A stretch of DNA of 64,000 nt from an uncultured Dehalococcoidia bacterium (GTDB lineage: Bacteria > Chloroflexota > Dehalococcoidia > Lucifugimonadales > UBA1127), in assembly GCA_913049785.1 (NCBI GenBank), contig CAJWXP010000006.1, positions 5,538 through 69,537 of the forward strand, given 5' to 3'. Both the position numbers and the translations under genes were made by a program. This document shows, piece after piece, positions 21,463 to 49,027 of the stretch (position 1 is the stretch's first letter; the number at the start of each line of letters is the position of its first letter). The notes under the pieces are model-generated. The model made no database searches. It was given only the letters and a program-made list of their open reading frames with translations, and was not told the origin of the DNA.

Positions 21463-22740
21463 TCAGGATGTAGCTAGAAGCTCAGTCCTCGAGGTCTCGA
21501 AAGGATCCGCGTCATGGGGGAGAACCATTGCACCACCCCGAATGCGGTAGGCTTCACCGTCTTTTGCTCCCCTGGCCTCTGCGCCGTCCATCACTGCCTT
21601 GGCTAAGTCGATCATGAGGCGGCGCCAGTAGATCATGGCGGTGTCCGAAGTACCCAGGTGCTCCTTGCTCCGACCCGTGATAGGACCCATGCTCTCCTGG
21701 ATGGCTGTGTCCTGTGTGCCAACGCCACGGACACCCGTGTAGTTATAGTTTCGCTGCATCTCCCGGTCGATAAGGTAATCATTGTCCGCATTGGCGAAGT
21801 TACGGAAGGTGATTGGGTCAACCACGGCATGGTTTTGATCCCCAGCACGGAAGATCTCCAGCTCCTCTTCGGTGAGGGGCCGGTCCGGATGCCAGGAGAA
21901 GGTAAAGGCCCAGCAGTTTTCGTCGTCAATGGGTACCCACGCATGACCGGTGAGGTAACGCCCTGCAGCGCTCGGGATGATGGTGTATGCCGGCATCATG
22001 ACTTGGGAAAAGCGCCAGTAATAATGGCCTTCTTCAGCGTTCCTGCGGGCACCAATCGCAAATCCGTATGGGGTATCGCGGACAAAAAATTTGGGAGATT
22101 TATCTTGGATCATGTAGATAGGGCGCTGGACCAGGAACCCGTCCTTGCCCGCCTTCATCTCCTGGACGTCCGCGAACACCCGGTGGAGGAACGAAACGTG
22201 GCTGGAGTCCACTCCCCCTTCTACGCCTTGTGCCCAGTTCGTTTCCTGGCGCCGCTTGGTGACGAACCGGTGGTCCTCAGGGACCCGCGCCCACTCAAGC
22301 TGAGGCAGCTCCGGTGTCTGGTCTTGCGGGCCCAGGTATGCCCAAAGCACCCCTCCCCAGTCCTGGGTTGGGTATGATGTGACGTGGACCTTATCCTTGA
22401 AGTTGCTCTCGGCTGGCTCTGAAGGCATGTCCACACAGTTGCCGTCTACATCAAACTTCCAGCCGTGGTAGACACACCGCAGGCCACATTCCTCATTGCG
22501 GCCAAAGAAGAGGCTGGCCCGGCGATGGGGGCAGTAGTTGTCCAATAATCCCACATTGCCGTTAGTGTCACGGAATGCTACGAGGTCTTCGCCCAGGAGC
22601 CGGACCCGCAACGGATCGCAGTCTGGTCCAGGAAGTTCACTGGACATCAAGAAGGGCATCCAGTATCGACGGAATAAGGTACCCATTGGTGTGCCAGGGC
22701 CAATTTTTGTTAAGTATTCATTGTCTTCAATGCTCAGCAT
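21463..22740 (-). CDS. Rieske [2Fe-2S] non-heme-iron oxygenase alpha subunit (phthalate-dioxygenase family)
   Basis: The Rieske motif is CPHRRASLFFG..CVYHGWKF, and the Fe site is NWAQGVEGGVDSSHVSFLH. GGAGGGGG lies upstream of the ATG. Confidence 0.9.
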   Translation of the reverse strand: MLSIEDNEYLTKIGPGTPMGTLFRRYWMPFLMSSELPGPDCDPLRVRLLGEDLVAFRDTNGNVGLLDNYCPHRRASLFFGRNEECGLRCVYHGWKFDVDGNCVDMPSEPAESNFKDKVHVTSYPTQDWGGVLWAYLGPQDQTPELPQLEWARVPEDHRFVTKRRQETNWAQGVEGGVDSSHVSFLHRVFADVQEMKAGKDGFLVQRPIYMIQDKSPKFFVRDTPYGFAIGARRNAEEGHYYWRFSQVMMPAYTIIPSAAGRYLTGHAWVPIDDENCWAFTFSWHPDRPLTEEELEIFRAGDQNHAVVDPITFRNFANADNDYLIDREMQRNYNYTGVRGVGTQDTAIQESMGPITGRSKEHLGTSDTAMIYWRRLMIDLAKAVMDGAEARGAKDGEAYRIRGGAMVLPHDADPFETSRTELLATS

Positions 22741-22856
22741 AGTGCCCCCTCCTGATTTTCTTGATCATACGTACCATTTGAGTATGTCCCGGTGCCACAG
22801 CGCCCACTCCAAGGATGGCTGCGTCTTCATCTCCTGGAGGATTTTGACCCCATAAT

Positions 22857-23315
22857 TTACGACGCACCCTCGCGATGCGTCAGACCAAGTCCCATTGCGT
22901 TTAACCCGACTTCGGCTGCATCAACGTCGCGTATTGGGCCGCCCGGTGCTTTCGCCTGAGTCCCACCACTCACACCAATACCACCAACGACTTTCTTACC
23001 CGAAACTACCGCCAACCCTCCTGCCAGCGTGGTGATCATACGATCATTCCAGTCTAGCTGGCTGCTTTCAACATCTTGCCACCATTGTCTCAAAGCTGTT
23101 GTATCGCGTTCAAAAATCGCCGCCGTGTAGGCCTTTCTAATTGCGCCATCGAGAAACCTAGGGGCGAGTCCGTCCATCCGTAGCGCTGAAATGAGCTCGC
23201 CGGACTTGTCTACGACTGCAACAGCCAGAGGCCGCTCCACTTCCGTCGCTTTCTCTCGAACCGCGGTAATTGCGCTGAGCGCCTCGTCTACTCCTAAGCG
23301 GGTTTCCTCCAACAT
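22857..23315 (-). CDS. GlcG/HbpS-like (DUF336) haem-binding protein
   Basis: 152 aa with the AVAVVDKSGELIS..GGLAV..GGIGVSGG pattern. Confidence 0.75.
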   Translation of the reverse strand: MLEETRLGVDEALSAITAVREKATEVERPLAVAVVDKSGELISALRMDGLAPRFLDGAIRKAYTAAIFERDTTALRQWWQDVESSQLDWNDRMITTLAGGLAVVSGKKVVGGIGVSGGTQAKAPGGPIRDVDAAEVGLNAMGLGLTHREGAS

Positions 23316-23568
23316 GGTTCAAACTCCCCCTCTCCTACGCCTTCAGGATGTCTCGGTGCCGCAGTGTCCGCTCCAGGGACGGCTGCATCTTCATCTCCTG
23401 GAACTCCCCGATGGCGAAGTCCAGGTGCTCCAGGGCTTCGGCCCGCCGTCGGGGTAGCGCTCCCAGAGGATGTCGGCCAACACTTTTGCCAATTTCTTGA
23501 TCCGGTCCTGACATATTACGGTTCCTAACTGAACCAGTACCGGGGATCCACTTTATTGAAAGTCTCTA

Positions 23569-24228
23569 TTAGTCCCCTAGTTGAATAGTGGTAATTGGTT
23601 TGACTAGGGTCTCCAATAGTGGAGAAGCCAATGCCATCACCCTGTTGGTTACTTGCTGACCAAATGAAATTTGAGACGTAAAACCTATAATGATACTTAG
23701 CTTTCCGTCAGGTTGCCTATCGATCATGACCGATGTTGAAGGATCTTCAAATCCGGCAACGCGAACTCCCTGTACCGCAGCGTTTTCAAACCCAACGGTA
23801 CGTGCGATCGGGAACGGCAATGCGATCACGGGGTTGGTCTCATCTATTTCGAAGATAAACGACGCGATGCACTTTGTTTCCTCGTTTAACTCGATCCGCC
23901 TCAGTGCGCCAAGTAATGAATTAATTTCATCCATCCGGTTTAACTTGGAAGCGCTGGCCTCATCATCAGATCCCGATGACCAATTCACGTCCAAGCTTAC
24001 GTGGATGCTACGAAAACCTCGTTGTGGTACCACCTTAGAAATGGATACGTCCATGTTGACGAAATTGTACCCACCGGATGCTTCCATTCGACCAAATAAA
24101 TGGCGGATACTGCGGCGAGAATTGGTACCTAAAGAGGCCAGAAGGTGTTGAACGTTTTCTACAGAAACGTCACTCTGTACGAATACCGTTATTCGTTCAA
24201 CAGGTTTTGCAATTGGTCTTAGCGGCAT
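23569..24228 (-). CDS. hypothetical protein
   Basis: 219-aa ORF in a visibly AT-richer patch. No motif was recognised and the only plus-strand ORFs overlapping it are shorter (153 and 66 aa). Confidence 0.5.
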   Translation of the reverse strand: MPLRPIAKPVERITVFVQSDVSVENVQHLLASLGTNSRRSIRHLFGRMEASGGYNFVNMDVSISKVVPQRGFRSIHVSLDVNWSSGSDDEASASKLNRMDEINSLLGALRRIELNEETKCIASFIFEIDETNPVIALPFPIARTVGFENAAVQGVRVAGFEDPSTSVMIDRQPDGKLSIIIGFTSQISFGQQVTNRVMALASPLLETLVKPITTIQLGD

Positions 24229-24299: not shown

Positions 24300-25601
24300 T
24301 CAGCGCAACCGCTCACCGCGTTTGGCGCTCTCGCCTGCATCGGCGGCGACTTCCCAAGCGTCATCATCGGGCCCAATAATGATTTCCTCAGAGCGGATCA
24401 TGTGGAAAGGAATGCTTGGGTCTAGAGCAGGAGGCTGATCTCCCTCTAGGAGACCTCTTGCAGCGCTCAGGAGCATCTGGCGAAGTCTGATGATAGCCGC
24501 ATCGGCCGAATACAGGTGCTCATTGGTTCTATCGTAGATGGGCCCCATGCTTTCCGTGACGCAATAATCCTGCTCTCCCCCCGACCAGATGCCGGATATG
24601 AGCTTCGTCTTCTGAGCCTCACGGTCAATCATGTAATCGTTGTCCGCCCGGAGCAGCCTCATACTCGGATCGTTGGGGTCCATAACCATAGCCTGCCGCT
24701 TGCGCTGCTCGCGTTCGGCGGCTGTGAATGGCCGTCCGGGTCTTGCTGAAAAGCTCATCCTGAAGCAATTCTCATCGTCAACCGGCACGTGCATCAGAGG
24801 GCCTCCAGAACCCCGCGGCGCTGCGATGAACGTAACGTAAGGCATGACCTGGCAGTTGATACGAAGGTGCTGATTTCCAGCCTCTGTGGGACGAATGGCG
24901 ATGAGCCGAAACCCATACGACGTATCCTGCACCTCTACGTTCGCATATCGGTAATGCGCTCGTTGATAGATGGACTGGGTAAGATCGGGATACCCCGGCT
25001 GGTCGGGCTCCGTGAGCTCGATTTTGAAGTCATCCAGATACCTATGCAACGTGCCTAGATGGCTCGAGTCGATGTTTCCTTCCAGGCTTTGGACCCAATT
25101 GCAGTAAATGGGAGTGCGCGTAGCTATAACACAGTCCGGATCAACACGATTGAACATGAAATCCGGAGAAGGCGGTTGGTGTTCGGCCGGTCCCATGTAC
25201 GCCCAGACAGCACCTGCGGATTCTATGCAGGGATAGGACGTGGTTCGGACCTTGTCCTTAAAGTTGCTATCAGGAAGGTCGGACGGCATGTCGACACACT
25301 GTCCGTTAACGTCAAATTTCCAGCCATGATAGATGCACATAATTCCACAATCCTGATTGATGCCAAAGAACAACGATGCACCTCGATGGGGACACCGCTC
25401 ATCGAGGAGCCCTACCTTGCCCTCGGAGTCTCGGAAGGCAATTAAGTCCTCGCCTAGGAGTCTAATCCGAAGGGGGGCTCCATCATTTTTCGGCAACTCC
25501 TCAGAGAGCAGGAATGGATGCCAGTAACGTCGCAGCACGTTCCCCATCGGGGTACCGGGGCCGACCCTGCACAAAATCTCATTGTCTTCAGTGGTTAGCA
25601 C
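24300..25601 (-). CDS. Rieske non-heme-iron oxygenase alpha subunit
   Basis: CPHRGASLFFG..CIYHGWKF and NWVQSLEGNIDSSHLGTLH are present. The start is GTG, preceded by GGGGAGG. Confidence 0.9.
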   Translation of the reverse strand: MLTTEDNEILCRVGPGTPMGNVLRRYWHPFLLSEELPKNDGAPLRIRLLGEDLIAFRDSEGKVGLLDERCPHRGASLFFGINQDCGIMCIYHGWKFDVNGQCVDMPSDLPDSNFKDKVRTTSYPCIESAGAVWAYMGPAEHQPPSPDFMFNRVDPDCVIATRTPIYCNWVQSLEGNIDSSHLGTLHRYLDDFKIELTEPDQPGYPDLTQSIYQRAHYRYANVEVQDTSYGFRLIAIRPTEAGNQHLRINCQVMPYVTFIAAPRGSGGPLMHVPVDDENCFRMSFSARPGRPFTAAEREQRKRQAMVMDPNDPSMRLLRADNDYMIDREAQKTKLISGIWSGGEQDYCVTESMGPIYDRTNEHLYSADAAIIRLRQMLLSAARGLLEGDQPPALDPSIPFHMIRSEEIIIGPDDDAWEVAADAGESAKRGERLR

Positions 25602-25621
25602 AATGACCTCCCCTTAAAGCT

Positions 25622-26386
25622 CTATTGTCCGCCATTTACTGAGATGGTCTGTCCAGATACGTAATCGGCGTCTTCCGACGCTAAGAAAGCAATGACCTTT
25701 GCCTGGTCTTCTGGAACGGCAATACGCCTCATTGCTACACGAGCTAGCATAGCCTTCTGTACTTCAGGAGCGCGTTTCGCCCATCGTTGTTCCGCCACTC
25801 GTGCGCTCATCGTCATGCTGGGAGCCACGGCATTGACGTTGATACCGTAGGGGCCAGCCTCTTGAGCCACCCGTGATGTGAATGAGATGATTCCGCCCTT
25901 GGCGGAGGAATAGGCGGCCCCGCTCTGAACCAGACCCGTCGCCGCTATAGAGGACAGATTGATGATCTTGCCCGATCCCCGGTTTTTCATGTGCGGAAGC
26001 ACCGCCTTACAGTAGAGGAAGGTAGCTTTGAGGTTGAAGTCCACCATCCGTTCCCATTCTTCCAGTTGGAACTCCTCAACTGGACGATTGTTGTCAGGGA
26101 CAACAGTGCTGCCACCAACACAGTTCACCAGGATGTCAATATGTCCCCACCGGTCCAACACGGAAGCAACTGTGGCTTCCACCTGGTCAGGATCAAAGGC
26201 ATCGGATACCTGCGGGGCCACTTCGCCAGAAGACTCGGCCAGATCGCTGACCAGCGATTCCAAAGACGTAGCGTCGATATCGACCGCCCCAAGACGGCCT
26301 CCCTCGTTAACGATGATTTCCCCGGTGGCTTTCCCGATGCCGTTTCCAGCGCCGGTGATAATCGCGACCTTCTCTGAAAACCGCAT
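25622..26386 (-). CDS. short-chain dehydrogenase/reductase
   Basis: TGAGNGIG and YSSAKGG (YxxxK) are present. The start is ATG at 26386 after AGGAG. The track ORF extends upstream into the neighbouring gene. Confidence 0.9.
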   Translation of the reverse strand: MRFSEKVAIITGAGNGIGKATGEIIVNEGGRLGAVDIDATSLESLVSDLAESSGEVAPQVSDAFDPDQVEATVASVLDRWGHIDILVNCVGGSTVVPDNNRPVEEFQLEEWERMVDFNLKATFLYCKAVLPHMKNRGSGKIINLSSIAATGLVQSGAAYSSAKGGIISFTSRVAQEAGPYGINVNAVAPSMTMSARVAEQRWAKRAPEVQKAMLARVAMRRIAVPEDQAKVIAFLASEDADYVSGQTISVNGGQ

Positions 26387-26417
26387 GGATGCTCCTAAAT
26401 TGGGGTGGTTGAGGTCG

Positions 26418-27041
26418 TTATCCCCGCACAATAATCTCGTAGCGCTCGCGTGCCGAAGGTCTATTGAGGTCCGTATATAGACTTGCGGCATGGTCCTTTT
26501 GGAACGCTTGGATTTCTTCGTGGCTTTCAGACGCATCGTAGTCGGCTATGTTGCGGTATCCGTTCAAGAGCAGCTGGTTGATTGGATCTCCCATCCAGCG
26601 GAAGAGTTCACTGCAAGCGAAACCGGGAGCGTGCTTCTGACGCAACTTCGCCAGCTCGTCCCGGCTGACCTCAAACGGCTTCACTGCTGGCAGGCGCAGT
26701 GTCCACTCAATGATGGCTACCACTTCCGCTTCATCCTGATCTCCTACAAGTGTCGTGGCGGTGTATCCTTGTACCGGTGCGTCCACGGTGACTAATGAAG
26801 CGATTTTGTTCTTCTCTTGGAACGCCGCTGTTTCCGGGCTCTTGCGGTACGTCTCGGCAGCCTCACGTGTCTCCCAGCGAGTATGGATTTCATACTTCGA
26901 CGGATGCCCTAATGCATGAAAAACAGTCAGCATCACAAACTCGGGTTGTCCCTTATGTCGGTCAGCCAGTTGATGGAAGATGGTTTCAATCTTGGCGTGA
27001 GTACCCGTTCTAGTACTGACCTGTGTCCTTTGCAGATACAT
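26418..27041 (-). CDS. tandem ABM / dimeric alpha-beta-barrel domain protein
   Basis: 207 aa with two halves that each resemble ABM domains (..YEIHTRWETREAAETYRKSPE.. and ..NGYRNIADYDASESHEEIQAF..). The call is weak. Confidence 0.5.
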   Translation of the reverse strand: MYLQRTQVSTRTGTHAKIETIFHQLADRHKGQPEFVMLTVFHALGHPSKYEIHTRWETREAAETYRKSPETAAFQEKNKIASLVTVDAPVQGYTATTLVGDQDEAEVVAIIEWTLRLPAVKPFEVSRDELAKLRQKHAPGFACSELFRWMGDPINQLLLNGYRNIADYDASESHEEIQAFQKDHAASLYTDLNRPSARERYEIIVRG

Positions 27042-27087
27042 GGTTCCCTCCCCTTGATGGTACGCTAATTATCTCAACCGTGCAGCG

Positions 27088-28392
27088 TCATACCCGAGCT
27101 ATAGCGTCTTCTCGACGTTCCTCCAAGAATTTTCCAAAATCCGGCTCTGGGGAAAAGGTGTGGATTGACCGCACACGATAGAGGTCTCCATGCGACGCAG
27201 GATAGGGTTCAATCCCCTCTTGGAGGTCTCTTGCCAACGTCAAGAGCAATCGACGCGCACGTATGATGGCGGCATCTGTGGTGCCGAGATGTTCCTTCGT
27301 CCGGTCGGCCACAGCTCCCATGCCGTCAGTCACCATTTCGTCTTGACTCCGGGCGGTAGCTATCCCGGTGAAGCTGAGAGTCTTCTGCGCCTCTCGGTCT
27401 ATCAAGTAGTCGTTGTCGGCGTTGCGGATATCTCTCCAGGTATCCAACACCGCTCCGTCTAGCATTCGATACTTAACTTGCTCCACCGTCGGGCTTATTC
27501 TCAGCCCGTCGCGCTCGTGTTCAGTTATCGGGTCGTCTCCAGCGCTGAAGTAGTACTGAATGACCGAGGTATGATCATCATCAATGGGGACGTAGGCCCT
27601 TCCACCCTGGGGCCAACCGGGGCGCGGCCCAGCGGTGATGCTGTACACGGGCAACATCCATTGCGTGACGCGCCAGTAATAGTCCTTATCTCCGGTGTTC
27701 CTCCGGGACCCGTAAACAAACCCATAATCTGTGTCCTGTACGGTCAGCATCGGCGCACCGTCTCGTTGGCCGTAGACCTGGGTCTCCGCGCCGCGCCTGT
27801 CCGGGTTTTCGTTGGAGTAGGGGTCGAACCGCTTATGGAGATACGTAGTGTGGGCAGTGTCTATCTCCCCTTCAGTACCTTGCATATAGTTCGCTTCTTG
27901 TATCCATCGGCTGAGTTCTCTATGCGTGTCCGGCACTCGGCACCACTCCATCTGTGGCAACTCTGGTTGGAGACCTTGTGGCCCCATATATAACCAGACG
28001 CACCCGCCGAACTCCTTGGCTGGGTACGCTTTGATCTTTACCTTGTCTTTGAAGTTGCTTTCCGCAGGTTCAGAGGGCATATCTACACAGTTGCCGTCGA
28101 CGTCGAACTTCCAGCCGTGGTATACGCACCTGAGGCCACACTCCTCGTTGCGTCCAAAAAACAGGCTCGCTCTTCGATGTGGACAGGCGGAATCGATAAT
28201 ACCAACTCGGCCGTTAGTGTCCCGGAACGCCACCAGGTCTTCACCGAGTAATCGGAAGCGCAGCGGCGGGCAGTCAGGCTGGGATAGCTCTGTGGATAGC
28301 AGCGCGGGAAGCCAAAATCGACGGAAGACCTCACCCATTGGCGTGCCAGAGCCCACCTGGGTTAAGAGTTCATTATCTGCTTTGCTCAACAT
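27088..28392 (-). CDS. Rieske non-heme-iron oxygenase alpha subunit
   Basis: CPHRRASLFFG..CVYHGWKF and NYMQGTEGEIDTAHTTYLH are present. GAAGGAGG lies upstream of the ATG. Confidence 0.9.
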   Translation of the reverse strand: MLSKADNELLTQVGSGTPMGEVFRRFWLPALLSTELSQPDCPPLRFRLLGEDLVAFRDTNGRVGIIDSACPHRRASLFFGRNEECGLRCVYHGWKFDVDGNCVDMPSEPAESNFKDKVKIKAYPAKEFGGCVWLYMGPQGLQPELPQMEWCRVPDTHRELSRWIQEANYMQGTEGEIDTAHTTYLHKRFDPYSNENPDRRGAETQVYGQRDGAPMLTVQDTDYGFVYGSRRNTGDKDYYWRVTQWMLPVYSITAGPRPGWPQGGRAYVPIDDDHTSVIQYYFSAGDDPITEHERDGLRISPTVEQVKYRMLDGAVLDTWRDIRNADNDYLIDREAQKTLSFTGIATARSQDEMVTDGMGAVADRTKEHLGTTDAAIIRARRLLLTLARDLQEGIEPYPASHGDLYRVRSIHTFSPEPDFGKFLEERREDAIARV

Positions 28393-28646: not shown

Positions 28647-30494
28647 TTACTGAGCCGCCTTGATGAATTCAAGGTGGGTGTGCGTACTGGTGATAGCACC
28701 CGGATAGATGTAGTCACTGACGAACTTAGGATTGATCACCGTTTCAGGAACCAGCCAGAACAGCGGGACCGTATAATATTTAGTAAAGGAAATCTCGCCC
28801 AACTCATGGAGCCACGCCTCTTGCTTTACGACATCCAGCGATCCCCGGATCTGGAGGAAGAGTTCGTCCATACGCGGGTCCTCCGGGTTGCCTGTCCGTG
28901 GGGTGGAGTGGGTGGCATAGACCCGGATCCCCAGCAGGAGGTGGGAGCTGGTGCCGGTGATGTTTAGCGAGTTGTCGTACTCGAAGTTCCGGCCCCTGGC
29001 CCGCCGTGTAGCATTGTCTTCAACAACGAGTTTGGGCTTCATGCCCACGTCTGAGAGGAACCCGAATACTGCGTCCACAACATCCAGAGACCCGGAGTAG
29101 TGGGTAAGGTTGATGGACGCCAGATCAATCTCGAACGGGTTGTCAGCAGTGTATCCAGCCTCTGCTAGCAGGGCCCGGGCCTTCGCGGGATCGTAGCCGT
29201 AGAACTGCTCGAAGCGGCTTGCCCATCTGGGATCCCAACCTTCGCGGGTGGGGTGGAAGTTGTTCAAGATCATGACCTCGCCCTTGCCGCCGAAAAAGGA
29301 TACATTCAGCAGGTCCCGGTCGATGGCGCGGTTGATGGCCTCCCGGACCCGTACGTCCTGCATGGGGGCGTCTGGGTACTTATACGCTGCGTCAAACTCA
29401 GGAAGTGTGCTTCGGGTGGAAGAGGTGGCAGGCAGGCGGATGCAGCATCGGAGGGCCATGAAAGTCCGTAGACCTGGGACATTGCCCTTTGCAATCTTCA
29501 TGCCAGCATCAAGCATCTGACTGAGGTTGTCCTCTGGTATGGGAGCCAGGTGGATCTCTCCCGCCAACACGCCGGCGACCCTGGTAGATGCCTCAGGTAT
29601 CCAGCGAATCTCCAGCTCCTGGAAGTCCGGTGTCATGCGCCAGTGCTCGTAAGGCGTTCGCTCGTAGCGGAAGAACGATCCAGTTGTATGGTCTAAGAAC
29701 TGGTAGGGGCCTGTGCCTGCATTAGGCTGTTGTGTTAAATTCGGCACTCCCGTCGCTTCCCGATGGTCCTTGCTCTGGATCAGGAGGCTCTGAGACAACT
29801 CACTGGTGAGGATGAACAGGTCCGCTGCTGGTGACGGCGCGCGGAAGATCACCTCATAATCGTTGACGACCTCTACTGTAGTAACGAGCCTCCGCATGCT
29901 CGCTGAGTTCCCATGCCCTGAATCTTCAGCAGCTATTTGCTGCCAACTATGTAACACGTCTTTCCCTGTGAACTCACCCCAGCCGCTATGGAATTGAATG
30001 CCTTCACGAAGCTTGAAGCGCCAGGACTTGCCGTCCGCGTCAACGCTCCAACTCTCCGCCAACTGGGGTATCAGGGCTCCGGTCACCGGATCCATTCCCA
30101 CAAGGTACTCATACATCGGCGTCAGAGGTTGGGCGTCAACGGGGCCGTTCTTTCCCGGTGTGAAGTTTTCTACTTGCGGTGCAACCTTGGCAAAGATGAC
30201 CCGCTGGATTTTCGCTTCCACGGGTGCGGCCATAGCGCCACCAGATGCCGCGATGGGTGCAGTTGCAGCTGCCGGAGTTCCCACTGCGATAATTGCCGCA
30301 GGTGCGGCGGTTGGCGCAGCAGCGGCTGCGGCCGCAGCAGCGGCTGCGGCTGGGGCCGCAGGCTCAGCGGTGGTGCCAGACGTGTTTGTGGTCGTCGTGT
30401 CATCATCACCACTGGAACAGGCTGCTGTTATTGCTAAAACAAGAATGAGAATCAGGAACAAACCAAATCTAGATGCGTATCGCGAACTGGTCAT
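28647..30494 (-). CDS. ABC transporter substrate-binding lipoprotein, family 5 (peptide/nickel/opine type)
   Basis: The signal peptide and lipobox read LVLAITAAC, followed by a Thr- then Ala/Pro-rich linker that includes a 12-Ala run. The body is SBP_bac_5-like. ATG at 30494 follows GGGGAGGG. Confidence 0.85.
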   Translation of the reverse strand: MTSSRYASRFGLFLILILVLAITAACSSGDDDTTTTNTSGTTAEPAAPAAAAAAAAAAAAPTAAPAAIIAVGTPAAATAPIAASGGAMAAPVEAKIQRVIFAKVAPQVENFTPGKNGPVDAQPLTPMYEYLVGMDPVTGALIPQLAESWSVDADGKSWRFKLREGIQFHSGWGEFTGKDVLHSWQQIAAEDSGHGNSASMRRLVTTVEVVNDYEVIFRAPSPAADLFILTSELSQSLLIQSKDHREATGVPNLTQQPNAGTGPYQFLDHTTGSFFRYERTPYEHWRMTPDFQELEIRWIPEASTRVAGVLAGEIHLAPIPEDNLSQMLDAGMKIAKGNVPGLRTFMALRCCIRLPATSSTRSTLPEFDAAYKYPDAPMQDVRVREAINRAIDRDLLNVSFFGGKGEVMILNNFHPTREGWDPRWASRFEQFYGYDPAKARALLAEAGYTADNPFEIDLASINLTHYSGSLDVVDAVFGFLSDVGMKPKLVVEDNATRRARGRNFEYDNSLNITGTSSHLLLGIRVYATHSTPRTGNPEDPRMDELFLQIRGSLDVVKQEAWLHELGEISFTKYYTVPLFWLVPETVINPKFVSDYIYPGAITSTHTHLEFIKAAQ

Positions 30495-31118
30495 AATACC
30501 CTCCCCAAGGTCTATGTTATCCGAATATAGTCCCCGTACGAGCGGGTAAACTAGCATAATCTTATAAATTAGTCAAGAACCATTCTTATTGAAATATGCT
30601 ACGGAATCAATTTATAGTTCGCGAAAATACATCTGAATATGAAATAACATCCGGGAATTCCAATGGTTTACAAATATCCGTTATGTAAATAAGCACTCTT
30701 TATGTTGTCGGATACATACGATCATTGAGGAGCTGTGGAATTGGGAATTGTACCAAGCGAAGATCCAGGTCTTGTTACAGTGAGAGTTGGAATTTAACCA
30801 TTCTCTTTTATCGGCAACGCGCAGAAGGCGAATGTGCGTAGTAGTGGTGTCGATTCTCGTCGCCGAACTAATCGGGGGCATCAATCGTTGGCGAGCATAC
30901 CGGACTAAAGGGTTTGATACGGCCTCATGCGGCCAACTAATCTCAATCAAAAAGGTCGAGTCTCTCGTAGCGCACGAAAGCATTCCTTAGGGTTCACCGA
31001 GGCCCAGCAGGAGCGGATTCACCAGCAGGACTATCGAGGCCGCGAACCATCCCCAAATACGTTTCCCGGCGCCGCCCTTGAGTCTGGCACTGATCCGCTT
31101 ATGTGCCCGGTGCCGGGC

Positions 31119-31340
31119 CCACCAGAGAGACAGATTGGCTGAGCCCTCGGACGAATTGTCCGAGGGCTCAGCCTTTTTCAGGAGCAGCACTCAACGCCGT
31201 GACCCTTTGGAATGATCGTCTCGACTCGGACCACGGCTTGGTCAATTACTATTTTGTCGACAACCAGCTTCAATAATTGCTATCGCTCGTCGAGGTTCAT
31301 TGATTCCAGTCCCTGTGTCACACGGGCACAGGAAGCCTTC
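31119..31340 (+). repeat. direct repeat copy B
   Basis: Matches 13663-13884 with an offset of 17456 nt. It starts with CCACCA and includes a perfect 16-bp hairpin at 31137-31173. Confidence 0.85.
31178..31340 (-). pseudogene. relic of large serine recombinase C-terminal tail (copy B)
   Basis: It translates to ..ARVTQGLESMNLDER*QLLKLVVDKIVIDQAVVRVETIIPKGHGVECCS*. The in-frame TAG lies at 31280-31282, and nothing upstream is recombinase-like. Confidence 0.55.
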
Positions 31341-36528: not shown

Positions 36529-36827
36529 CTAAATTCTCACTTGCACATCATCGCCATCTACTTTGACCTCGTAGACGGGCAACGCTTCTCTTGCAGGGCC
36601 GTTGGTTACTACGCCAGTCTTGAGCTCAAAGCAGCTACCGTGGAAGGGGCAAGTAATCTCCCCATCGTCAATCTCCGCATCTTCCATGGTAAGGCCCACG
36701 TGAGGACAATCGTTGGAAAATGCGACTAACTCGCCGCCTATCTCAGCTAGGACTATGCTGTTGCCACCAGCTTCCTCTTTGAACCAGTGATTTCACTGCG
36801 TTTGCTTACCGTTACAAATTCCGACAA
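36529..36827 (-). pseudogene. Rieske-type [2Fe-2S] ferredoxin, apparent 1-nt frameshift
   Basis: The downstream frame reads ..FSNDCPHVGLTMEDAEIDDGEITCPFHGSCFELKTG..YEVKVDGDDVQV (CPH..CPFH). The N-terminal (M)SEFVTVSKRSEITGS lies in another frame, starting at TTG 36827 after GGAGGGG. The frames join near 36775-36790, and the length of 299 nt is not divisible by 3. Confidence 0.6.
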
Positions 36828-37024
36828 GATCCCCTCCGAAATCGCCGAGTGTTTTGCTATCTAGAATTGGCTAAGGGAGTATCGTTTGACGCTACCGTAC
36901 TATCAAGGGGATTCGTATGTACATACTGTCAAGTGCAGCACGTCACAGCACATGCAAAGAGGAAGAATTTTAATAGTGAATCGGGAAAGGCAGGCGTTCT
37001 CCGTCTCCGTCACAGAGGAACCAA

Positions 37025-37067
37025 AAGGAAAAGCCCTCCAGACGTAATGCCTGGAGGGCTTTTCCTT
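37025..37067. terminator. bidirectional intrinsic terminator
   Basis: A 17-bp stem joins AAGGAAAAGCCCTCCAG and CTGGAGGGCTTTTCCTT. It is T-rich on the minus strand after the stop of the oxidoreductase beta subunit. Confidence 0.7.
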
Positions 37068-37121
37068 CTGCTCAAGAATGACATCTTCAACGCTCGATGC
37101 GTTGAGGAGCGATTACGTCCG

Positions 37122-38006: not shown

Positions 38007-38019
38007 ATTCAGCTTCTCC

Positions 38020-39798: not shown

Positions 39799-40040
39799 GC
39801 ATGTGCTCCTCTGTACAGTGTTCTTAGACACTGAATAACTCAATGATTGGCACTACTCTGAGCCAACACCCTAATAGTACACTTATCAGGCAAATAAAGT
39901 ATAAATTCTATTTATACATATCAATAGTCTCTATGGGTTGGCCATCCTGTCTTCTACACAACCTATGGCACACGGGCTTCTCATGGTGCGCTCGCGCTGA
40001 CTTCACCGGTGCAATATATGCCCGGACTCCCGCAGATACA

Positions 40041-40075
40041 AGGCACTCCCCTGACGTTATGTCAGGGGAGTGCCT
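40041..40075. terminator. hairpin terminator downstream of Rieske oxygenase 40132-41391
   Basis: A 15-bp perfect stem joins AGGCACTCCCCTGAC and GTCAGGGGAGTGCCT with the loop GTTAT. There is a T-run on the plus side. Confidence 0.6.
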
Positions 40076-40131
40076 TTTCGTTATTCAACAAGCAGACCTG
40101 TATCCTTGCTGAGAACGAGCGTTGCCAACCT

Positions 40132-41391
40132 CTACGATTCCTCTCTCGTGTTGGCGAATGTGTACCCTTCAGGCTTCCACGGCTCCTTGGGCTCTTGGCC
40201 TTCCATCAACGCCCTTGCGGTGTCTATCATCCTCTGTCGGACGCGGATGATGATCTTGTCAGTACTGACCAGGTGCTCTTTCCACCGATTAGAGACCGGG
40301 CCCCACTGATTCTCCTGAAGAGCCGTATCCTGAACCGCGGTCATGGACATGCCACTGAAGCTGAACTGCTTTTGCTTGATGCGGTCAATGTTGTAGTCGT
40401 TAAAGATATTGTCTTTGTACAGGAACGTTCCCGGCTCCTGGGGTGGGTTGATGAGACCACCAATGCGCAAATCCCAAATCTGCTGTTCCGTCAGCGGGCC
40501 CGTGGGGCTCCAACGTACGCGGAAGTAGATGGTGTGCTCATCGTCTGAGGGGACTTTGATGTTCAACGGGTATGTGCCCTCAGAGGCTAGGCCTACCGGA
40601 TCAAAACACGGCATAAGCCAACTGGCACCGCGTCCCGTATTGGATGGCCTACTTTGCCCCTCGTCACCGCGCCTAACCACTCCTCCGCCACCACTCCTGG
40701 TGGTGCCTATACCACACTCGTATTCGATGGGTTCTGGCAAAGGTGGCTTGTACTCAGGTGATGTGCCTACGGGCCTGCTGATAGTCCCGTTGAACTTGTT
40801 AGCAGGGTTGCTGCGGTTGTCGTCGAGGGTGCTGTGGAGGAAGGCAGCGTGGCTTGGATCGAAGTCGCCTTCAAGCGCCTGCATGTAATTGGAGTGATAG
40901 ACGTACTTTGCCGCTTGAGTCCAACTGGAGGGGTTCGAGAACCAGTCGAATCCAGGATCGGGCGGCCTCTTGTCCGAGGGCCCCATGTAGAACCAGATCA
41001 ACCCGCCGCCCTCGATAGCCGGGTATGCAGTGATCTTGATCTTGTCCTTGTAGGTGTCGCCTTCCTGACAATTAGGCATGTGGACGCAATTGCCATCCAC
41101 ATCAAACTTCCACCCATGATAGATGCAGCGAAGGCCGTTCTCCTCGTTCCGGCCAAAGAACATAGGCGCACCGCGATGGGGGCAATAGGCATCAACACAG
41201 CCTACGTTCCCATCGCTATCGCGGTAGGTGACCAAATCCTCGCCAAGAAGCCTTAGTCGGATCGGATCGCCATCGGGTTCAGGCAACTCGCTGGACAGCA
41301 TTGCCGGCAGCCAAAACCTTCTGAACAGCTCGCCAGTGGGAGTCCCTGGGCCAACCTGGGTAAGCATGGCATTGTCTTCAACTGAAAGCAC
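40132..41391 (-). CDS. Rieske non-heme-iron oxygenase alpha subunit
   Basis: CPHRGAPMFFG..CIYHGWKF and NYMQALEGDFDPSHAAFLH are present. The start is GTG after GGGAGGTG. Confidence 0.9.
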   Translation of the reverse strand: MLSVEDNAMLTQVGPGTPTGELFRRFWLPAMLSSELPEPDGDPIRLRLLGEDLVTYRDSDGNVGCVDAYCPHRGAPMFFGRNEENGLRCIYHGWKFDVDGNCVHMPNCQEGDTYKDKIKITAYPAIEGGGLIWFYMGPSDKRPPDPGFDWFSNPSSWTQAAKYVYHSNYMQALEGDFDPSHAAFLHSTLDDNRSNPANKFNGTISRPVGTSPEYKPPLPEPIEYECGIGTTRSGGGGVVRRGDEGQSRPSNTGRGASWLMPCFDPVGLASEGTYPLNIKVPSDDEHTIYFRVRWSPTGPLTEQQIWDLRIGGLINPPQEPGTFLYKDNIFNDYNIDRIKQKQFSFSGMSMTAVQDTALQENQWGPVSNRWKEHLVSTDKIIIRVRQRMIDTARALMEGQEPKEPWKPEGYTFANTREES

Positions 41392-44274: not shown

Positions 44275-46068
44275 TTAGCGCGCTGCTCGTACGCTATCAA
44301 AGTGGCTGTACTGTGCAACCATGCTTCCAGGGAAAACCCAGTCTGCAACGATTTCAGGGTTGTACATAAGAGAATTGGGAATCCAAAGCAGCGGGATGTT
44401 CTGATTGTTATCGAACATGAGGTCACCTACCTCACGGAAGATCTTGGTATGTTCGGCCTGGTTCATTGTCCCTCTGGCCGCCAGATGTAGCTCATTCAGC
44501 CGCGGGATGATGAATACGCTTGGTGTCCTAGCATACTGACTTCCGTAGATGAAGACGTTGGTGAACAGGTCAGAAGATGTCTGCCTCAGGTCGATGTGAT
44601 TATCCATCTCGTGTGCTCGAATCTTCGAGGCCTTCGCGTTGCCGTCCATGGTCTCCAGCTTGACCTTGACGCCTATGTCTTCAATCATTCCGACCATGGC
44701 CAACATCATGTCCTGGCCTTCTGGCAAACCCCGGTATGACGTCGCCAGAACTACGTTGACTTCGTAGGGATTGTTGGGCCCGTACCCGGCCTCTGCCAGC
44801 AGGGAACGAGCGGCAGCAGGGTCATAACCAAACTGCTCAGGGTATCTGGTTGCCCACTCGGGGTTCCAGCCATCACTTCGCTCGTTGTAACCCATGGTGA
44901 TCAGCAGTTCTCCACCACCGCCAAACAACGCTTGGTTTAACTTATCCCTATCAATGGCCTTGCTCAGGGCTCGACGCACCTTGATGTCCTGCATAGGCAC
45001 ATCAGGATGGATATAGCCCTGTGATGGATCATTTCTGTCCTTCAAGACACAACACAAGAACTGCACCACTGTGCGTTTCGCAGGTATCGTTCCCTTAATG
45101 AGCTGCATCCCATCGCCGAAGGCAACGCGGTGGAGGTCTGTGGCAAGAGGAGTAATGTGAACCTCCCCAACCTGCAATGCGGCCAATCGCGTGAATTCTT
45201 CCGAAATGAACCGCAACTCCATTTCCTCAAACTCAGGAGTCACGCGCCAGTGCTGGTACGGTACCCGCTTGAAGCGAACGTAACTACCCTCTGATCGTTC
45301 AAGGAATTGGTACGCGCCGGTTCCTGCCATCGGCTGGTCATCCAACCCAGGATATTCACCCATAGCATCTAAGTTCCTGCTGCTCATGAATTCAAATCCG
45401 CCGACGAACTGTGAGAGGTTCCTAAAAAGGGTGACGTTAATCTGCTTCAGATTTAAAACCGCTTCGCGGTTGTTCAGGACTACAACATTGTCGATATTGC
45501 GGCGATATTGGTCGCTGCCGGGATTGTCCCCGTGCATGGCATCTCGAACCGCGTCCTCGAAATCATAGGCAGTCATCTCGCCCCAGCCGTTGTGGAACTG
45601 GACGCCTTCCCGGAACTTGAACTTTATTGTCTCATTGGTCAACGCCCATTCTTCAGCAAGCATGGGCGTATAAGCGCCTGTTGCCGGATCCACGCTGGCA
45701 ACCCACTCATACATAGGGCCAAGCTGCCAGCCCGAGGTGCCGGTGATCCCTGTGGCGGCGTTGGACTCGTTGAGGGGCGCAGGAACAGCAATGACCAACC
45801 GCTTTACTGCGGCAGGGCCCTCTATAGCGGATGTTCGTGCAACCGGCGCAGACGCTGAAGGAGCAGACAACGGCGCCAAGGTATTCGGCCTTACTCCTTC
45901 AGGCGCTGCAGCGGCAGCGGGGGCTTGGGGTTGAGCTGGGGCCGCAGACGGTGCGGTACTTACAGAACCTCCACCTCCACCTCCATCCCCAGAGCTACAA
46001 GCAGCCACTAAAGCAACTGCACTGATAGCTATCAGTAGAAACGATACTAGCCTCATCTGTATTCTCAC
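44275..46068 (-). CDS. ABC transporter substrate-binding lipoprotein, family 5
   Basis: Lipobox LVAAC, then a Gly/Ala/Pro-rich linker and an SBP_bac_5-like body. GTG at 46068 follows GGAGG. ATG at 46056 is an alternative start. Confidence 0.85.
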   Translation of the reverse strand: MRIQMRLVSFLLIAISAVALVAACSSGDGGGGGGSVSTAPSAAPAQPQAPAAAAAPEGVRPNTLAPLSAPSASAPVARTSAIEGPAAVKRLVIAVPAPLNESNAATGITGTSGWQLGPMYEWVASVDPATGAYTPMLAEEWALTNETIKFKFREGVQFHNGWGEMTAYDFEDAVRDAMHGDNPGSDQYRRNIDNVVVLNNREAVLNLKQINVTLFRNLSQFVGGFEFMSSRNLDAMGEYPGLDDQPMAGTGAYQFLERSEGSYVRFKRVPYQHWRVTPEFEEMELRFISEEFTRLAALQVGEVHITPLATDLHRVAFGDGMQLIKGTIPAKRTVVQFLCCVLKDRNDPSQGYIHPDVPMQDIKVRRALSKAIDRDKLNQALFGGGGELLITMGYNERSDGWNPEWATRYPEQFGYDPAAARSLLAEAGYGPNNPYEVNVVLATSYRGLPEGQDMMLAMVGMIEDIGVKVKLETMDGNAKASKIRAHEMDNHIDLRQTSSDLFTNVFIYGSQYARTPSVFIIPRLNELHLAARGTMNQAEHTKIFREVGDLMFDNNQNIPLLWIPNSLMYNPEIVADWVFPGSMVAQYSHFDSVRAAR

Positions 46069-46122: not shown

Positions 46123-47418
46123 TTAGACCTTGATCCCCGCATCTTCTCCGGCAAACGCGCCATAGAGTCGCCAGTCGTCTCCGAAAGGCATGATCTCCTC
46201 ATGGGATCGGACTTTCCCTAAAACGGCCGGGTCATGCTTCATGGGCTCGATGCCTTCAAGCATGGCCCTCGCAGCGTTCACCATGACCTTCCGGTTATGG
46301 ATGATGGCACCGTCTGATGTTCCCAAATGCTCGTTCTGCTTGTCACTGATGACTGCCATACCCTCAGTAACAGCTTGATCCTGGGTTCCAACACCGCCGA
46401 TTCCCGTAAAGCTCAGATTCCGTTGGTCGTCACGGCTGAGCATGTAGTCGTTCCACTTGCCCTTTTCACCACGGCCGTGGATGTCGGTCTTGTTTCCGGA
46501 GTTGTTCTTGCGATCCTCTCGCTCCTCCTCAGTGTTAGGGCGGTCCGTCCGTGCGCTCACGCTCCAGCGCCAGCATGTCTCATCGTCCCGGGGCACCATC
46601 ATCAGAACTCCGGGGCCCTGGGATGGCAGCCTGGAGATCATCTGGTAGATCGGGAATATATTCGTGGTGATCCGAAGGTGGTTGTGTCCGTTCGGGGTGG
46701 TTCGGATACCAACGTAGCGCCAGCCATAGTTTGTCTCCTGGACTACTACGCGCGCATTGCGGTCTGCGCCCCGGATCTTGGTGGACATCTTGTTGGATGG
46801 AGTTCCTACGATGTCTGTACCGTCATCAAAGTCGCTCATGTCCAGGTCAGCCAAGTTGCGGTGCAGGAAGCTGATGTGGGATGAATCGATGTTGCCTTCG
46901 ATCACCTGGACGTAGTTGGCATCTGACTGTACGCGATTGGTGATGATATGGCTGTCCGGGTAGTCGAATATCTGGAGGTTCAGGAATGGAGGCTGAAGCT
47001 CCTTGGGACCCATGTAGGTCCAAATAGTGCCCCCGCGGTCAACCGTAGGGTAAGCAGTGATTTTGACCTTGTCCTTGAAGTTACTCTCAGCGGGCTCGGA
47101 TGGCATGTCGATGCAATCGCCGTTGATGTCAAATTTCCAGCCGTGATAGACGCACCGCAAGCCGCTCTCCTCGTTCCTGCCAAAGAACAAACTTGCGCGA
47201 CGATGAGGGCAATAGTTGTCGACGAGGCCAACATCACCGTTGGTGTCTCTGAAAGCGACCAACTCCTCGCCCAATAACTTCGCTCTGACTGGTGGGCAAT
47301 CTGGCTCAGGAAGCTCCTCAGAAGTCAGAACCGGCAGCCAGTAACGCCGAAGAACCTCTCCCATTGGAGTGCCTGGTCCGACCCTACAGAGTAGCTCATT
47401 GTCCTCATGTGTCAGCAT
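46123..47418 (-). CDS. Rieske non-heme-iron oxygenase alpha subunit
   Basis: CPHRRASLFFG..CVYHGWKF and NYVQVIEGNIDSSHISFLH are present. ATG at 47418 follows GGGGAGGG. Confidence 0.9.
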   Translation of the reverse strand: MLTHEDNELLCRVGPGTPMGEVLRRYWLPVLTSEELPEPDCPPVRAKLLGEELVAFRDTNGDVGLVDNYCPHRRASLFFGRNEESGLRCVYHGWKFDINGDCIDMPSEPAESNFKDKVKITAYPTVDRGGTIWTYMGPKELQPPFLNLQIFDYPDSHIITNRVQSDANYVQVIEGNIDSSHISFLHRNLADLDMSDFDDGTDIVGTPSNKMSTKIRGADRNARVVVQETNYGWRYVGIRTTPNGHNHLRITTNIFPIYQMISRLPSQGPGVLMMVPRDDETCWRWSVSARTDRPNTEEEREDRKNNSGNKTDIHGRGEKGKWNDYMLSRDDQRNLSFTGIGGVGTQDQAVTEGMAVISDKQNEHLGTSDGAIIHNRKVMVNAARAMLEGIEPMKHDPAVLGKVRSHEEIMPFGDDWRLYGAFAGEDAGIKV

Positions 47419-47647
47419 GTATTCCCTCCCCAATACCCTTGTTCGCGTTTATGCCGGGAAATCGCTCTGATTATTCCCTACGTAAACCGAATTCAAATCA
47501 TACGGCATCTGAATGAAGCTAATGTAGTTGATTTCGCTTGCATGTCAACCCCATCCCATCATGTGAGAAGGGAAGTTTGAAGTATACGATGGAAATATTC
47601 CTAAAAAGCATAATTAAAATCCATGATGGAATAACTAAATCGATGGA

Positions 47648-47676
47648 TTGACACACGCACTATCCAGAACTAGGGT
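47648..47676 (+). promoter_or_regulatory. candidate promoter for Rieske oxygenase 47756
   Basis: TTGACA (47648-47653), a 17-nt spacer, then TAGGGT (47671-47676). Confidence 0.3.
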
Positions 47677-47755
47677 TTGTTCAGCATAGTGATTTGCTGG
47701 TCACCACGGGCGCGAAGCTCAGTAGCAGACACAGCAACTCAATGGGAGGGGCGGC

Positions 47756-49027
47756 ATGTTAAGCGAGAGGGACAATAATCTCTTCACCAGGGTCGGCCCT
47801 GGAACACCCATGGGCGAGTTGATTCGTCGATTCTGGATTCCGGGGTTATTGGAAGAAGAGGTACCTGAACCCGATTCACCTCCTGTTCGCCTTCGACTCC
47901 TTGGCGAGGACCTGGTGGCGTTCCGTGACACCAACGACAAAATAGGCATCCTGGACAACTACTGCCCTCACCGTCGAGCGAGCTTGTTCTTCGGTCGCAA
48001 CGAGGAGTGTGGCCTACGTTGCGTCTACCACGGCTGGAAGTTCGATGTGAACGGTGACTGTATCGACATGCCGTCAGAACCAGCAGAGAGCAACTTCAAG
48101 GACAAGGTGAAGATTAAGGCGTACGCGGCTGTGATCCGCGGAGGGGTCGTCTGGGTCTACATGGGGCCCCCGGAAATCACGCCGACTCCGCCGGAGTTTG
48201 AGTGGTCTCTGCTGCCCGCCGATCAACGTGCTGCCAGTAAACGTCTTGAGGAATGCAACTGGGCGCAGGCTGTTGAGGGCGGCATAGACTCAAGCCACAT
48301 CTCGTTCCTTCACCGCAACCTGGCGGACCTAAAGGCGGACAGACCCAAAACGCTGCACCAGAAATATGCAGGCCAGGACCGTTCACCCTCCTTCACGCTC
48401 AAGGACACCGACTACGGCTTTCTTGTAGGCGCAAGGCGATCCGCAGAGAACGCCCAACATTATTGGCGAATATCCCAGTTCCTTGTTCCGTTCTACACCA
48501 TGATCCCCCCGGTGCTGGTTGAAGACACAGACTCCCGGAACTCCGGTTATGGGGGTCACGCCTGGGTCCCGATAGACGATGAGAACACATGGACATGGAA
48601 CTTCAGTTGCAACCCTCATCGACCGTATCCTGCCGAGCGACGGGAAGGCGGGCTTGAGGAGCAACTGGATGCGAAGTACCGGCCAATTCGCAACAAGGAC
48701 AACGATTACGAACTGAGCCGAGACATGCAGAAGAACGTCAACTTTACGGGCATCGTCGGCATCAACACCCAGGACAGGGCTGTACAAGAGAGCATGGGCA
48801 ACATAGTCGATCGCACAGCTGAGCATCTTGGTACGACTGATGCTGCTGTCATTGCGTTCCGCAAACGGCTGATCGGTCTTGCGATGTCGCTTCAAGAAGG
48901 CGTTGAGCCAGCGGAAGCAGCGAACGGCGACTGGTATCAGGTGCGCTCTGCATCAGCCATCCTTAACCACGACGTTGTGTTTAATGAGGGTGCTGCACAT
49001 CTCTTGGAGGCAACCACCCAGAAATAA
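47756..49027 (+). CDS. Rieske non-heme-iron oxygenase alpha subunit
   Basis: CPHRRASLFFG..CVYHGWKF and NWAQAVEGGIDSSHISFLH are present. GGGAGGGG lies upstream of the ATG. Confidence 0.9.
   Translation: MLSERDNNLFTRVGPGTPMGELIRRFWIPGLLEEEVPEPDSPPVRLRLLGEDLVAFRDTNDKIGILDNYCPHRRASLFFGRNEECGLRCVYHGWKFDVNGDCIDMPSEPAESNFKDKVKIKAYAAVIRGGVVWVYMGPPEITPTPPEFEWSLLPADQRAASKRLEECNWAQAVEGGIDSSHISFLHRNLADLKADRPKTLHQKYAGQDRSPSFTLKDTDYGFLVGARRSAENAQHYWRISQFLVPFYTMIPPVLVEDTDSRNSGYGGHAWVPIDDENTWTWNFSCNPHRPYPAERREGGLEEQLDAKYRPIRNKDNDYELSRDMQKNVNFTGIVGINTQDRAVQESMGNIVDRTAEHLGTTDAAVIAFRKRLIGLAMSLQEGVEPAEAANGDWYQVRSASAILNHDVVFNEGAAHLLEATTQK

Follow-up and report, generated by a model that had tools for sequence, protein, structure and literature searches.

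A cluster of six divergent Rieske oxygenase alpha-subunit genes without a linked reductase gene in marine SAR202 DNA

Six paralogous oxygenase genes and their family

A stretch of 64,000 nucleotides from contig CAJWXP010000006.1 (hereafter the window) carries six intact paralogous genes for alpha subunits of Rieske oxygenases, called R1 to R6 here, together with the relic of a seventh. An earlier note, made from the DNA letters alone, had placed six such genes and one relic in this region. Both the open reading frames (ORFs) and their domains bear this out, each of the six proteins matching a Rieske (PF00355) and a LigXa_C (PF19301) model:

21463..22740 (-): R1, Rieske + LigXa_C alpha-only oxygenase, 425 aa (Pfam, structure alignment)
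24300..25601 (-): R2, Rieske + LigXa_C oxygenase, 433 aa (Pfam)
27088..28392 (-): R3, Rieske + LigXa_C oxygenase, 434 aa (Pfam)
40132..41391 (-): R4, Rieske + LigXa_C oxygenase, 419 aa, more divergent than the other five (Pfam)
46123..47418 (-): R5, Rieske + LigXa_C oxygenase, 431 aa when read from the ATG at 47418 (Pfam)
47756..49027 (+): R6, Rieske + LigXa_C oxygenase, 423 aa, divergent from R5 (Pfam)
52036..52213 (+): relic, what remains of the N-terminus of a seventh paralog, interrupted by a stop and a frameshift (tblastn, translation)

Scores range from 62 to 77 bits for PF00355 and from 63 to 151 bits for PF19301 (cut-off 27), R4 having the lowest PF19301 score and a match split over two stretches. 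An alternative TTG start exists for R5 at 47433; the alignment prefers the ATG. All six ORFs are full length (419-434 aa), and none has lost a Rieske ligand, an iron ligand or the bridging Asp. The motifs quoted in the earlier note for the N-terminus, the Rieske centre and the iron site are real and are borne out by our alignment. The common N-terminus reads MLxxxDN...G.GTP.G (invariant columns include M1, L2, D6, N7, G14, G16, T17, P18 and G20), the Rieske motif C70-P-H72-R and C89-x-Y-H92-G-W (CPHR...C.YHGWKFD, with CPHR...C(V/I)YH present in every paralog), and the iron site N168..Q171..E174 G175..D178..H181..L185 H186. Pairwise identities are only 37.5-53% (53% between R6 and R1), and the genes are therefore not recent duplicates created by assembly redundancy. 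The relic encodes MLPQEENELLSRVGPWTPMGELIATLL at 52036-52150, followed by a stop and a weaker, out-of-frame continuation to about 52213. The Pfam model for beta subunits (Ring_hydroxyl_B) found no match among the ORFs scanned in the 64-kb window.

The closest solved relatives of R1 are the isophthalate dioxygenase (IPDO) of Comamonas testosteroni KF1 (9INA, E 8e-118, about 47% identity as estimated from the alignment), a putative phthalate 4,5-dioxygenase (7FHR, E 1e-104, about 45%, likewise estimated) and phthalate dioxygenase (PDO; 7FJL, E 2e-89, about 40%, likewise estimated). Sequence similarity to solved structures (E 1e-118) settles the fold. Judged from their sequences, R1-R6 are alpha-only Rieske oxygenases of the phthalate/isophthalate dioxygenase/LigXa family, in agreement with the phthalate-family assignment made earlier. 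IPDO forms an alpha3 trimer and PDO an alpha3-alpha3 assembly, neither with beta subunits, and D174 of IPDO bridges the Rieske centre and the iron (PMC12445078). These two enzymes of C. testosteroni KF1 (9INA/9IOY and 7FJL) have the same Rieske plus LigXa_C-type architecture as R1-R6, are alpha-only as R1-R6 appear to be, and share with them the Rieske Cys/His ligands, the bridging Asp, the two His and one Asp that bind the iron, and an Arg that anchors a substrate carboxylate.

For the pocket comparison, residues described in PMC12445078 were mapped onto R1-R6 by alignment to both enzymes: the IPDO specificity set (G172, T175, R234, I246, F249, H257, I294 and F333) and the PDO set that binds the two ortho carboxylates (S182, R207 and R244, the alignment being unreliable around R207). 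Catalytic residues are nearly invariant and pocket positions variable. D174, H177 and H182 (IPDO numbering), the Asp of the Q-D motif and the Rieske ligands are the same in all six paralogs, as is the carboxylate-anchoring Arg (IPDO R234, equivalent to PDO R244). The H257 position reads H, L, R, N, L and H from R1 to R6, leaving the His in R1 and R6 only, which are also the only two to keep G172. The F333 position reads V, G, A, T, V and I, the Phe being lost throughout, and the position shared by IPDO V178 and PDO S182 reads V, L, T, A, I and I, the Ser being replaced in every case. As these specificity residues are replaced, no paralog is an orthologue of IPDO (F333 lost in six of six, H257 and G172 confined to R1 and R6) or of PDO (S182 replaced in six of six at about 40% identity, although the R244 equivalent is present). 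Since the anchoring Arg is kept in six of six, carboxylated substrates may reasonably be proposed for R1-R6; the pockets themselves differ from one paralog to the next.

Source lineage and age of the paralogs

The exact R1 protein is encoded on several TARA Oceans contigs and in the metagenome-assembled genome GCA_009392685.1, as is the beta subunit of a 2-oxoacid:ferredoxin oxidoreductase (OFOR) that lies next to R4 in the window. A ferredoxin fragment from the same neighbourhood has an identical counterpart in GCA_009392685.1 (P0001), under the NCBI name 'SAR202 cluster bacterium'. Four consecutive genes of the window, R3-ABM-SDR-R2, are syntenic in a complete Dehalococcoidia chromosome (OZ252245.1, locus L037) at 79-90% amino acid and 78-83% nucleotide identity. 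Given this NCBI name and this synteny, the window is marine SAR202 (Chloroflexota, Dehalococcoidia) chromosomal DNA. Orthologues of R2 and R3 in OZ252245.1 are 90% and 87% identical to them, and the two genes in between are conserved at 79-83% amino acid identity:

25622..27041 (-): SDR (25622-26536) and ABM-domain protein (26418-27041), between R2 and R3 (Pfam)

The SDR could be a cis-dihydrodiol dehydrogenase and is a candidate for that role. The module occupies 9980-14147 at the L037 locus and 24300-28392 in the window, and its flanking genes differ between the two. R4 has orthologues of 96% identity in the metagenome contig L089 and of 86% in L090, the neighbours in L089 being different from those in the window.

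A phylogeny of the paralogs, a check that the earlier note had called for, does not recover the six as one clade. The neighbour-joining (NJ) tree compares the six paralogs with 82 oxygenases taken from 80 GTDB-species loci and with three PDB anchors (91 sequences, 100 bootstraps); it is an NJ analysis only, with sampling skewed towards relatives of R1. R1-R6 are monophyletic in none of the 100 bootstraps, and the smallest split containing all of them holds at least 40 of the 91 taxa. R2 and R3 each pair with their L037 orthologue in 100/100 bootstraps, R4 groups with another gene of that locus (L037_5906, 47% identical to it) in 99/100, and R5 is sister to the R2 clade in 98/100. R1 and R6 are sisters in only 2/100; in the single NJ tree, for which the bootstrap of this clade was not computed, they fall with genes from Chloroflexi, Acidobacteriota, Novosphingobium, Steroidobacteraceae and Burkholderiaceae. 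R2, R3 and R4 are 38-45% identical to each other, against 87-90% for R2 and R3 with their orthologues in L037. These relationships suggest that the six copies represent at least four old subfamilies, interleaved with genes of other phyla.

The earlier note had taken the density of paralogs as a sign of lineage-specific expansion. A recent tandem expansion, in which the six copies were duplicated within the lineage and so widened its substrate range, would be in keeping with the packing of six copies and a relic in 31 kb, with the adjacent and divergent position of R5 and R6, and with the clustering of R5 and the R2 clade. It is nevertheless highly improbable. The paralogs are just 38-53% identical, a distance comparable to that of IPDO and PDO from R1; they do not form a clade; R2, R3 and R4 have counterparts in the L037 genome; and in the single tree R1 and R6 sit among genes of Acidobacteriota and Burkholderiaceae. 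The NJ result points to subfamilies shared with other orders or phyla. The lack of monophyly and the counterparts in another genome therefore leave a recent lineage-specific expansion unsupported.

Electron partners in the window and at homologous loci

The Pfam scan of the window covered 56 ORFs, namely the six oxygenases and 50 others, comprising all long non-overlapping ORFs judged to be genes. None of the 56 matches FAD_binding_6, NAD_binding_1, Fer2 or Pyr_redox_2. Searches of the window by tblastn with five Pfam-verified reductases from homologous loci gave no match below E = 0.3, the best values being 0.94 for the three PDR-type reductases and 0.32 for the glutathione-reductase-type (GR-type) reductases of loci L008 and L010. 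Four ORFs without a Pfam match show no redox features in PDB searches or on inspection, being a polysaccharide-deacetylase fragment, a lipoprotein and two proteins without Cys motifs. A scan of all six frames for Cys motifs found a single ferredoxin-like sequence, a frameshifted Rieske ferredoxin considered below. An overlooked reductase in the window is thus excluded by Pfam, tblastn, the Cys-motif scan and the PDB searches, and the claim that 64 kb hold neither a reductase nor a beta subunit gene stands. IPDO and PDO are two-component systems with a cognate reductase, that of IPDO being encoded in the same iph cluster (PMC12445078), whereas the window has no linked reductase gene. Neither a two-component (class IA, PDR-type) system, which would show as a linked FNR-like/[2Fe-2S] reductase gene, nor a linked three-component (LigXa-like) set, with its Pyr_redox_2 + Reductase_C reductase gene, was found at the locus.

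Whether this absence is unusual can be judged from homologous loci. The best 80 genome loci were listed, with up to 10 kb on either side of each, along with 80 metagenome loci for relatives of R4, and partners were counted only when confirmed by Pfam or tblastn (calls of ferredoxins and reductases from motifs alone were discarded, 9 of 10 and 2 of 10 candidates in two batches having proved false positives). No partner gene lies near 70 of these best 80 genome loci, and confirmed partners occur at the other 10. Chloroflexota loci lack one in 21 of 22 cases, the exception (L011) having a weak candidate. Where partners do occur, they are of two kinds. A Rieske ferredoxin and a GR-type reductase are found at L008, L010, L012 and L015 (the pair being verified by Pfam at L008 and L010, the ferredoxin by Pfam and the reductase by tblastn at L012, and both by tblastn alone at L015), a Rieske ferredoxin without a reductase at L014, and a GR-type reductase homologue at L040 as well as, weakly matching and at a distance of 7 kb, at L011. 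PDR-type reductases are found at L035, L043 and L053, and PDR-type genes at three of the 80 metagenome loci of R4 relatives. Both architectures therefore occur in the family. As partners are absent near most homologues, their absence from the window is normal and no anomaly, a view with which the distant partner genes of LigXa, described below, also agree.

The closest cultivated relatives of R1 are at three of these loci (L008, L010 and L012), in the Burkholderiaceae Caballeronia sordidicola, Cupriavidus sp. and Paraburkholderia ginsengiterrae. Their oxygenases are 53-55% identical to R1, share an NJ clade with R1 and R6, and match R1 at G172, S175, V178, R234, I246 and H257 (IPDO numbering). 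A Rieske ferredoxin gene is immediately upstream of the oxygenase and a Pyr_redox_2/Reductase_C reductase gene nearby, in Caballeronia and Cupriavidus also on the upstream side, a set that the window does not have. The Caballeronia and Cupriavidus loci run counter to the earlier statement that oxygenases of this family need a reductase with FMN/FAD and a [2Fe-2S] cluster.

Unlinked partners are also known from the 5,5'-dehydrodivanillate (DDVA) O-demethylase of Sphingobium sp. SYK-6, whose LigXa gives the Pfam family its name and where ligXa (SLG_07770), ligXc (SLG_08500) and ligXd (SLG_21200) are at separate loci (PMC12997858) and the DDVA cluster lists ligXa, ligZ and ligY with no ferredoxin or reductase (PMC6874591). 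LigXa/LigXc/LigXd resembles R1-R6 in belonging to the same PF19301 family and in having unlinked partner genes, a likeness at the level of the domain family; it differs in that its host is a sphingomonad rather than a member of the Chloroflexota, and in that six paralogs are clustered here. Both the LigXa system and the window have Amidohydro_2 neighbours (PF04909, a family that includes the LigW/LigY type). By analogy with these enzymes and the Burkholderiaceae homologues, R1 and R6 at least would probably receive electrons from a Rieske-type ferredoxin and a GR-type reductase.

Three features of the window bear on a local supply of electrons:

36529..36835 (-): Rieske-type dioxygenase ferredoxin (HcaC/AndAb-like) in two frames, with a frameshift near 36760 (NCBIfam)
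37122-39843 (-): two-subunit OFOR
49183-50766 (+): 527-aa protein with two SagB-family (TIGR03605) nitroreductase-fold stretches, 155 nt downstream of R6

The first 22 codons of the ferredoxin (MSEFVTVSKRSEITGSKRKLV) and the remainder (EAGGNSIVLAEIGGELVAFSNDCPH...CPFHG...) do not share a reading frame. When the two parts are joined, the product matches the PRK09965/HcaC and AndAb dioxygenase-ferredoxin models of NCBIfam over positions 15-99 of 106, and intact 102-aa orthologues of 70-72% identity exist in other metagenomes. The same DNA, identical over the aligned stretch, is found in five assemblies from several samples, which rules out an assembly error; this population carries a genuine lesion here, and the ferredoxin gene has most probably become a pseudogene. 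Mapping of coordinates suggests that the 75-aa product given by one gene caller begins with an ATA codon. Another metagenome-assembled genome (L169, GCA_041487235.1, 1789-7619) encodes a Rieske ferredoxin of 40% identity a few kilobases from genes for a Pyr_redox_2 protein, an aldehyde:ferredoxin oxidoreductase and a 4Fe-4S protein, with no Rieske oxygenase in the 9 kb covered.

R4, OFOR alpha, OFOR beta and the ferredoxin follow one another on the minus strand, and the earlier note had considered non-canonical partners within the window as one possible source of electrons. On such a scheme the OFOR would reduce the adjacent ferredoxin and thereby feed R4 and the other oxygenases, a 2-oxoacid replacing NAD(P)H. 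The gene order, the dioxygenase type of the reconstructed ferredoxin, its intact orthologues elsewhere and the lack of a conventional reductase in the window would all fit. The ferredoxin lesion shared by five assemblies does not, and other observations also argue against it. A hairpin of -42 kcal/mol with a U-rich tail follows directly on the OFOR beta stop (37015-37075, minus strand) and one of -33.6 kcal/mol on the R4 stop (40030-40090, minus strand), both with z-scores of about -8; these are likely transcript boundaries and suggest separate transcripts. The 96%-identical R4 orthologue in L089 has no OFOR, ferredoxin or permease beside it, and homologues of the OFOR, like those of the SagB-like protein, were found in none of the other 160 homologous genome and metagenome loci fetched. 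Two-subunit OFORs, moreover, often serve central metabolism. These local candidates being weak, a supply by this route is very improbable. So too, and to a slightly greater degree, is the broader idea that the Rieske oxygenases of this SAR202 lineage are driven by an OFOR-reduced Rieske-type ferredoxin (the local copy expressed through -1 frameshifting, or a paralog elsewhere) with no NAD(P)H reductases. If true, it would couple the oxygenation of refractory dissolved organic matter directly to 2-oxoacid oxidation. The other source that the earlier note had named, partners encoded elsewhere in the genome and shared, is the most likely one.

Genomic context and a reading of the locus

The first 13.7 kb of the window are taken up by genes of the housekeeping type (phosphoglycerate mutase, TIM, MiaA, HflX, citrate synthase, an S41 protease, SmpB and tmRNA). 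Beyond them are catabolic and transport genes, including three family-5 solute-binding proteins, two ABC permeases and two MFS transporters, two SDRs, a Zn-dependent alcohol dehydrogenase, two Amidohydro_2 proteins, ABM, HbpS-like and CMD proteins, three NMT1-like proteins, an arylsulfotransferase-like protein, an M16 peptidase, two D-2-hydroxyacid dehydrogenases and a LysR regulator. The 64-kb window has no gene for an ABC ATPase. One of the family-5 solute-binding proteins has a long Ala-rich linker after its signal/lipobox region. The paralog sets and repeats of the region are as follows:

28647-30557, 44275-46068 and 60359-62182: three family-5 solute-binding proteins (paralog set)
32920-33837, 35306-36259 and 50917-51798: three NMT1-like proteins (paralog set)
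13316-13668 (+): tmRNA gene directly downstream of smpB, tag peptide GEREYALAA
13663..13882 (+): 220-bp direct repeat, left copy, with tmRNA 3' end, terminator hairpin and serine recombinase 3' end
31119..31338 (+): 220-bp direct repeat, right copy

The two copies of the repeat are 92% identical, with the first 38 bp exact, and bracket 17.4 kb that include R1-R3. Each is made up of the last 6 nt of the tmRNA, the terminator hairpin and the minus-strand 3' end of a large serine recombinase gene. The first recombinase remnant has a Zn_ribbon_recom match, an internal stop and no catalytic domain; the second amounts to only about 45 codons. The GC content, 0.58-0.60 over about the first 8 kb, is lower beyond that point (0.50-0.58). 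Genes are sparse over 2.4 kb (16136-18566), where inspection by eye suggests a C-terminal fragment of the ABM type on the minus strand (18213-18566). Part of this gene-poor stretch, 310 bp long (17284-17593), has a counterpart of 92.6% identity beside the R4 orthologue in L089, which indicates rearrangement between strains. Further along, the second of the CMD/AhpD-like genes at 33888-35181 (plus strand) is split into ORFs 34393-34791 and 34852-35181 and is probably a frameshifted pseudogene; the identical split is called in two other assemblies (L085 and L086).

Taken together, the repeats, GC drop, pseudogenes and strain rearrangement suggest decayed tandem integrative elements at ssrA. R1-R3 could accordingly have arrived on tmRNA-targeting integrative elements that have since decayed, the density of oxygenases reflecting an accumulation of foreign cassettes and not duplication in place. 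The repeat that brackets 13.7-31.3 kb, with its tmRNA, terminator and recombinase ends, argues for this, as do the remnant with a recombinase zinc ribbon, the lower GC content, the different gene order of close strains and the horizontal transfer proposed for SAR202 dioxygenases (PMC6946804). Both recombinases are fragmentary, however, and the repeat, with no more than 6 nt of the tmRNA in it, departs from a classical att duplication. The GC shift is small, and R3-ABM-SDR-R2 is also found in the other Dehalococcoidia chromosome with different flanks, so that vertical descent of the block is equally possible. An origin of R1-R3 in such cassettes is possible but doubtful.

The same signs of decay could mean that the oxygenases themselves are leftovers, in a degrading and largely non-functional island stripped of its electron-transfer genes. 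The region does hold several pseudogenes (the frameshifted ferredoxin, the Rieske relic, the split CMD gene at 34393-35181, the ABM fragment and the recombinase remnants) as well as the gene-poor stretch at 16.1-18.5 kb. The integrity of the six ORFs, with all ligands and the bridging Asp in place, speaks against such a fate for the oxygenases, as do the identity of the R1 and OFOR beta proteins and of the ferredoxin-region DNA across contigs from different samples and assemblies, and the 87-90% conservation of R2 and R3 in another genome. A largely dead cluster is very improbable.

We consider it probable, instead, that the locus is a chromosomal SAR202 catabolic neighbourhood whose six anciently diverged, alpha-only oxygenases of the phthalate/isophthalate dioxygenase/LigXa family are served by shared electron donors encoded elsewhere. 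Each oxygenase would most likely be an alpha3 homotrimer or a stacked alpha3-alpha3 hexamer. The most likely source of electrons is NAD(P)H, by way of one or a few such shared partners. Electrons would enter the Rieske [2Fe-2S] cluster singly and pass over the conserved Asp bridge to the next subunit's 2-His-1-carboxylate iron. O2 would be activated at this mononuclear iron, and the product could be hydroxylated, cis-dihydroxylated or O-demethylated, differently for each paralog. The substrates are probably carboxylated aromatic or alicyclic compounds of dissolved organic matter; the family-5 solute-binding proteins and ABC permeases encoded next to the oxygenases could provide for their uptake, and the neighbouring SDR, ABM, Amidohydro_2 and CMD-type enzymes for their further processing. 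Several points weigh against this interpretation. The electron partners are placed elsewhere by inference from data that span 64 kb of a genome, and the sole local ferredoxin is frameshifted, which makes it a doubtful donor for the oxygenases. The proposed substrates depend on a single conserved Arg and the alignment with two structures, with the unreliable region around PDO R207 already mentioned. The several pseudogenes of the region also allow that part of the cluster is decaying.

Expansions of ring-hydroxylating dioxygenase (RHD) genes have been described before in this clade. The 122 SAR202 genomes of Saw et al. (2020, mBio, PMC6946804) encode 365 RHD alpha subunits, mostly annotated as phthalate 4,5-dioxygenase and with evidence for horizontal transfer cited, and group VII genomes have 1-62 alpha against 1-3 beta subunits each. 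Colatriano et al. (2018, Commun Biol, PMC6123686) count 30 ring-demethylating monooxygenases and 10 RHDs in one SAR202 metagenome-assembled genome. A role in degrading resistant aromatic dissolved organic matter has been proposed for these enzymes (PMC6946804, PMC6123686). The published expansions (COG4638) share with the window the clade, the many alpha subunits and the near lack of beta subunits, a pattern repeated here by six alpha and no beta subunit genes in 64 kb. The paralog expansion of SAR202 is thus already published, and the locus is an uncharacterised further instance of it. Neither paper has this locus, the frameshifted ferredoxin or the tmRNA repeats. 'Ferredoxin' is not mentioned in either of them, and 'reductase' is absent from PMC6123686 and occurs only in unrelated contexts in PMC6946804; the electron donors of SAR202 oxygenases are apparently not discussed in these two papers. 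What the window adds is a concrete example of a cluster, in which ancient subfamilies with different pockets lie side by side and a four-gene module, R3-ABM-SDR-R2, has been kept between genomes.

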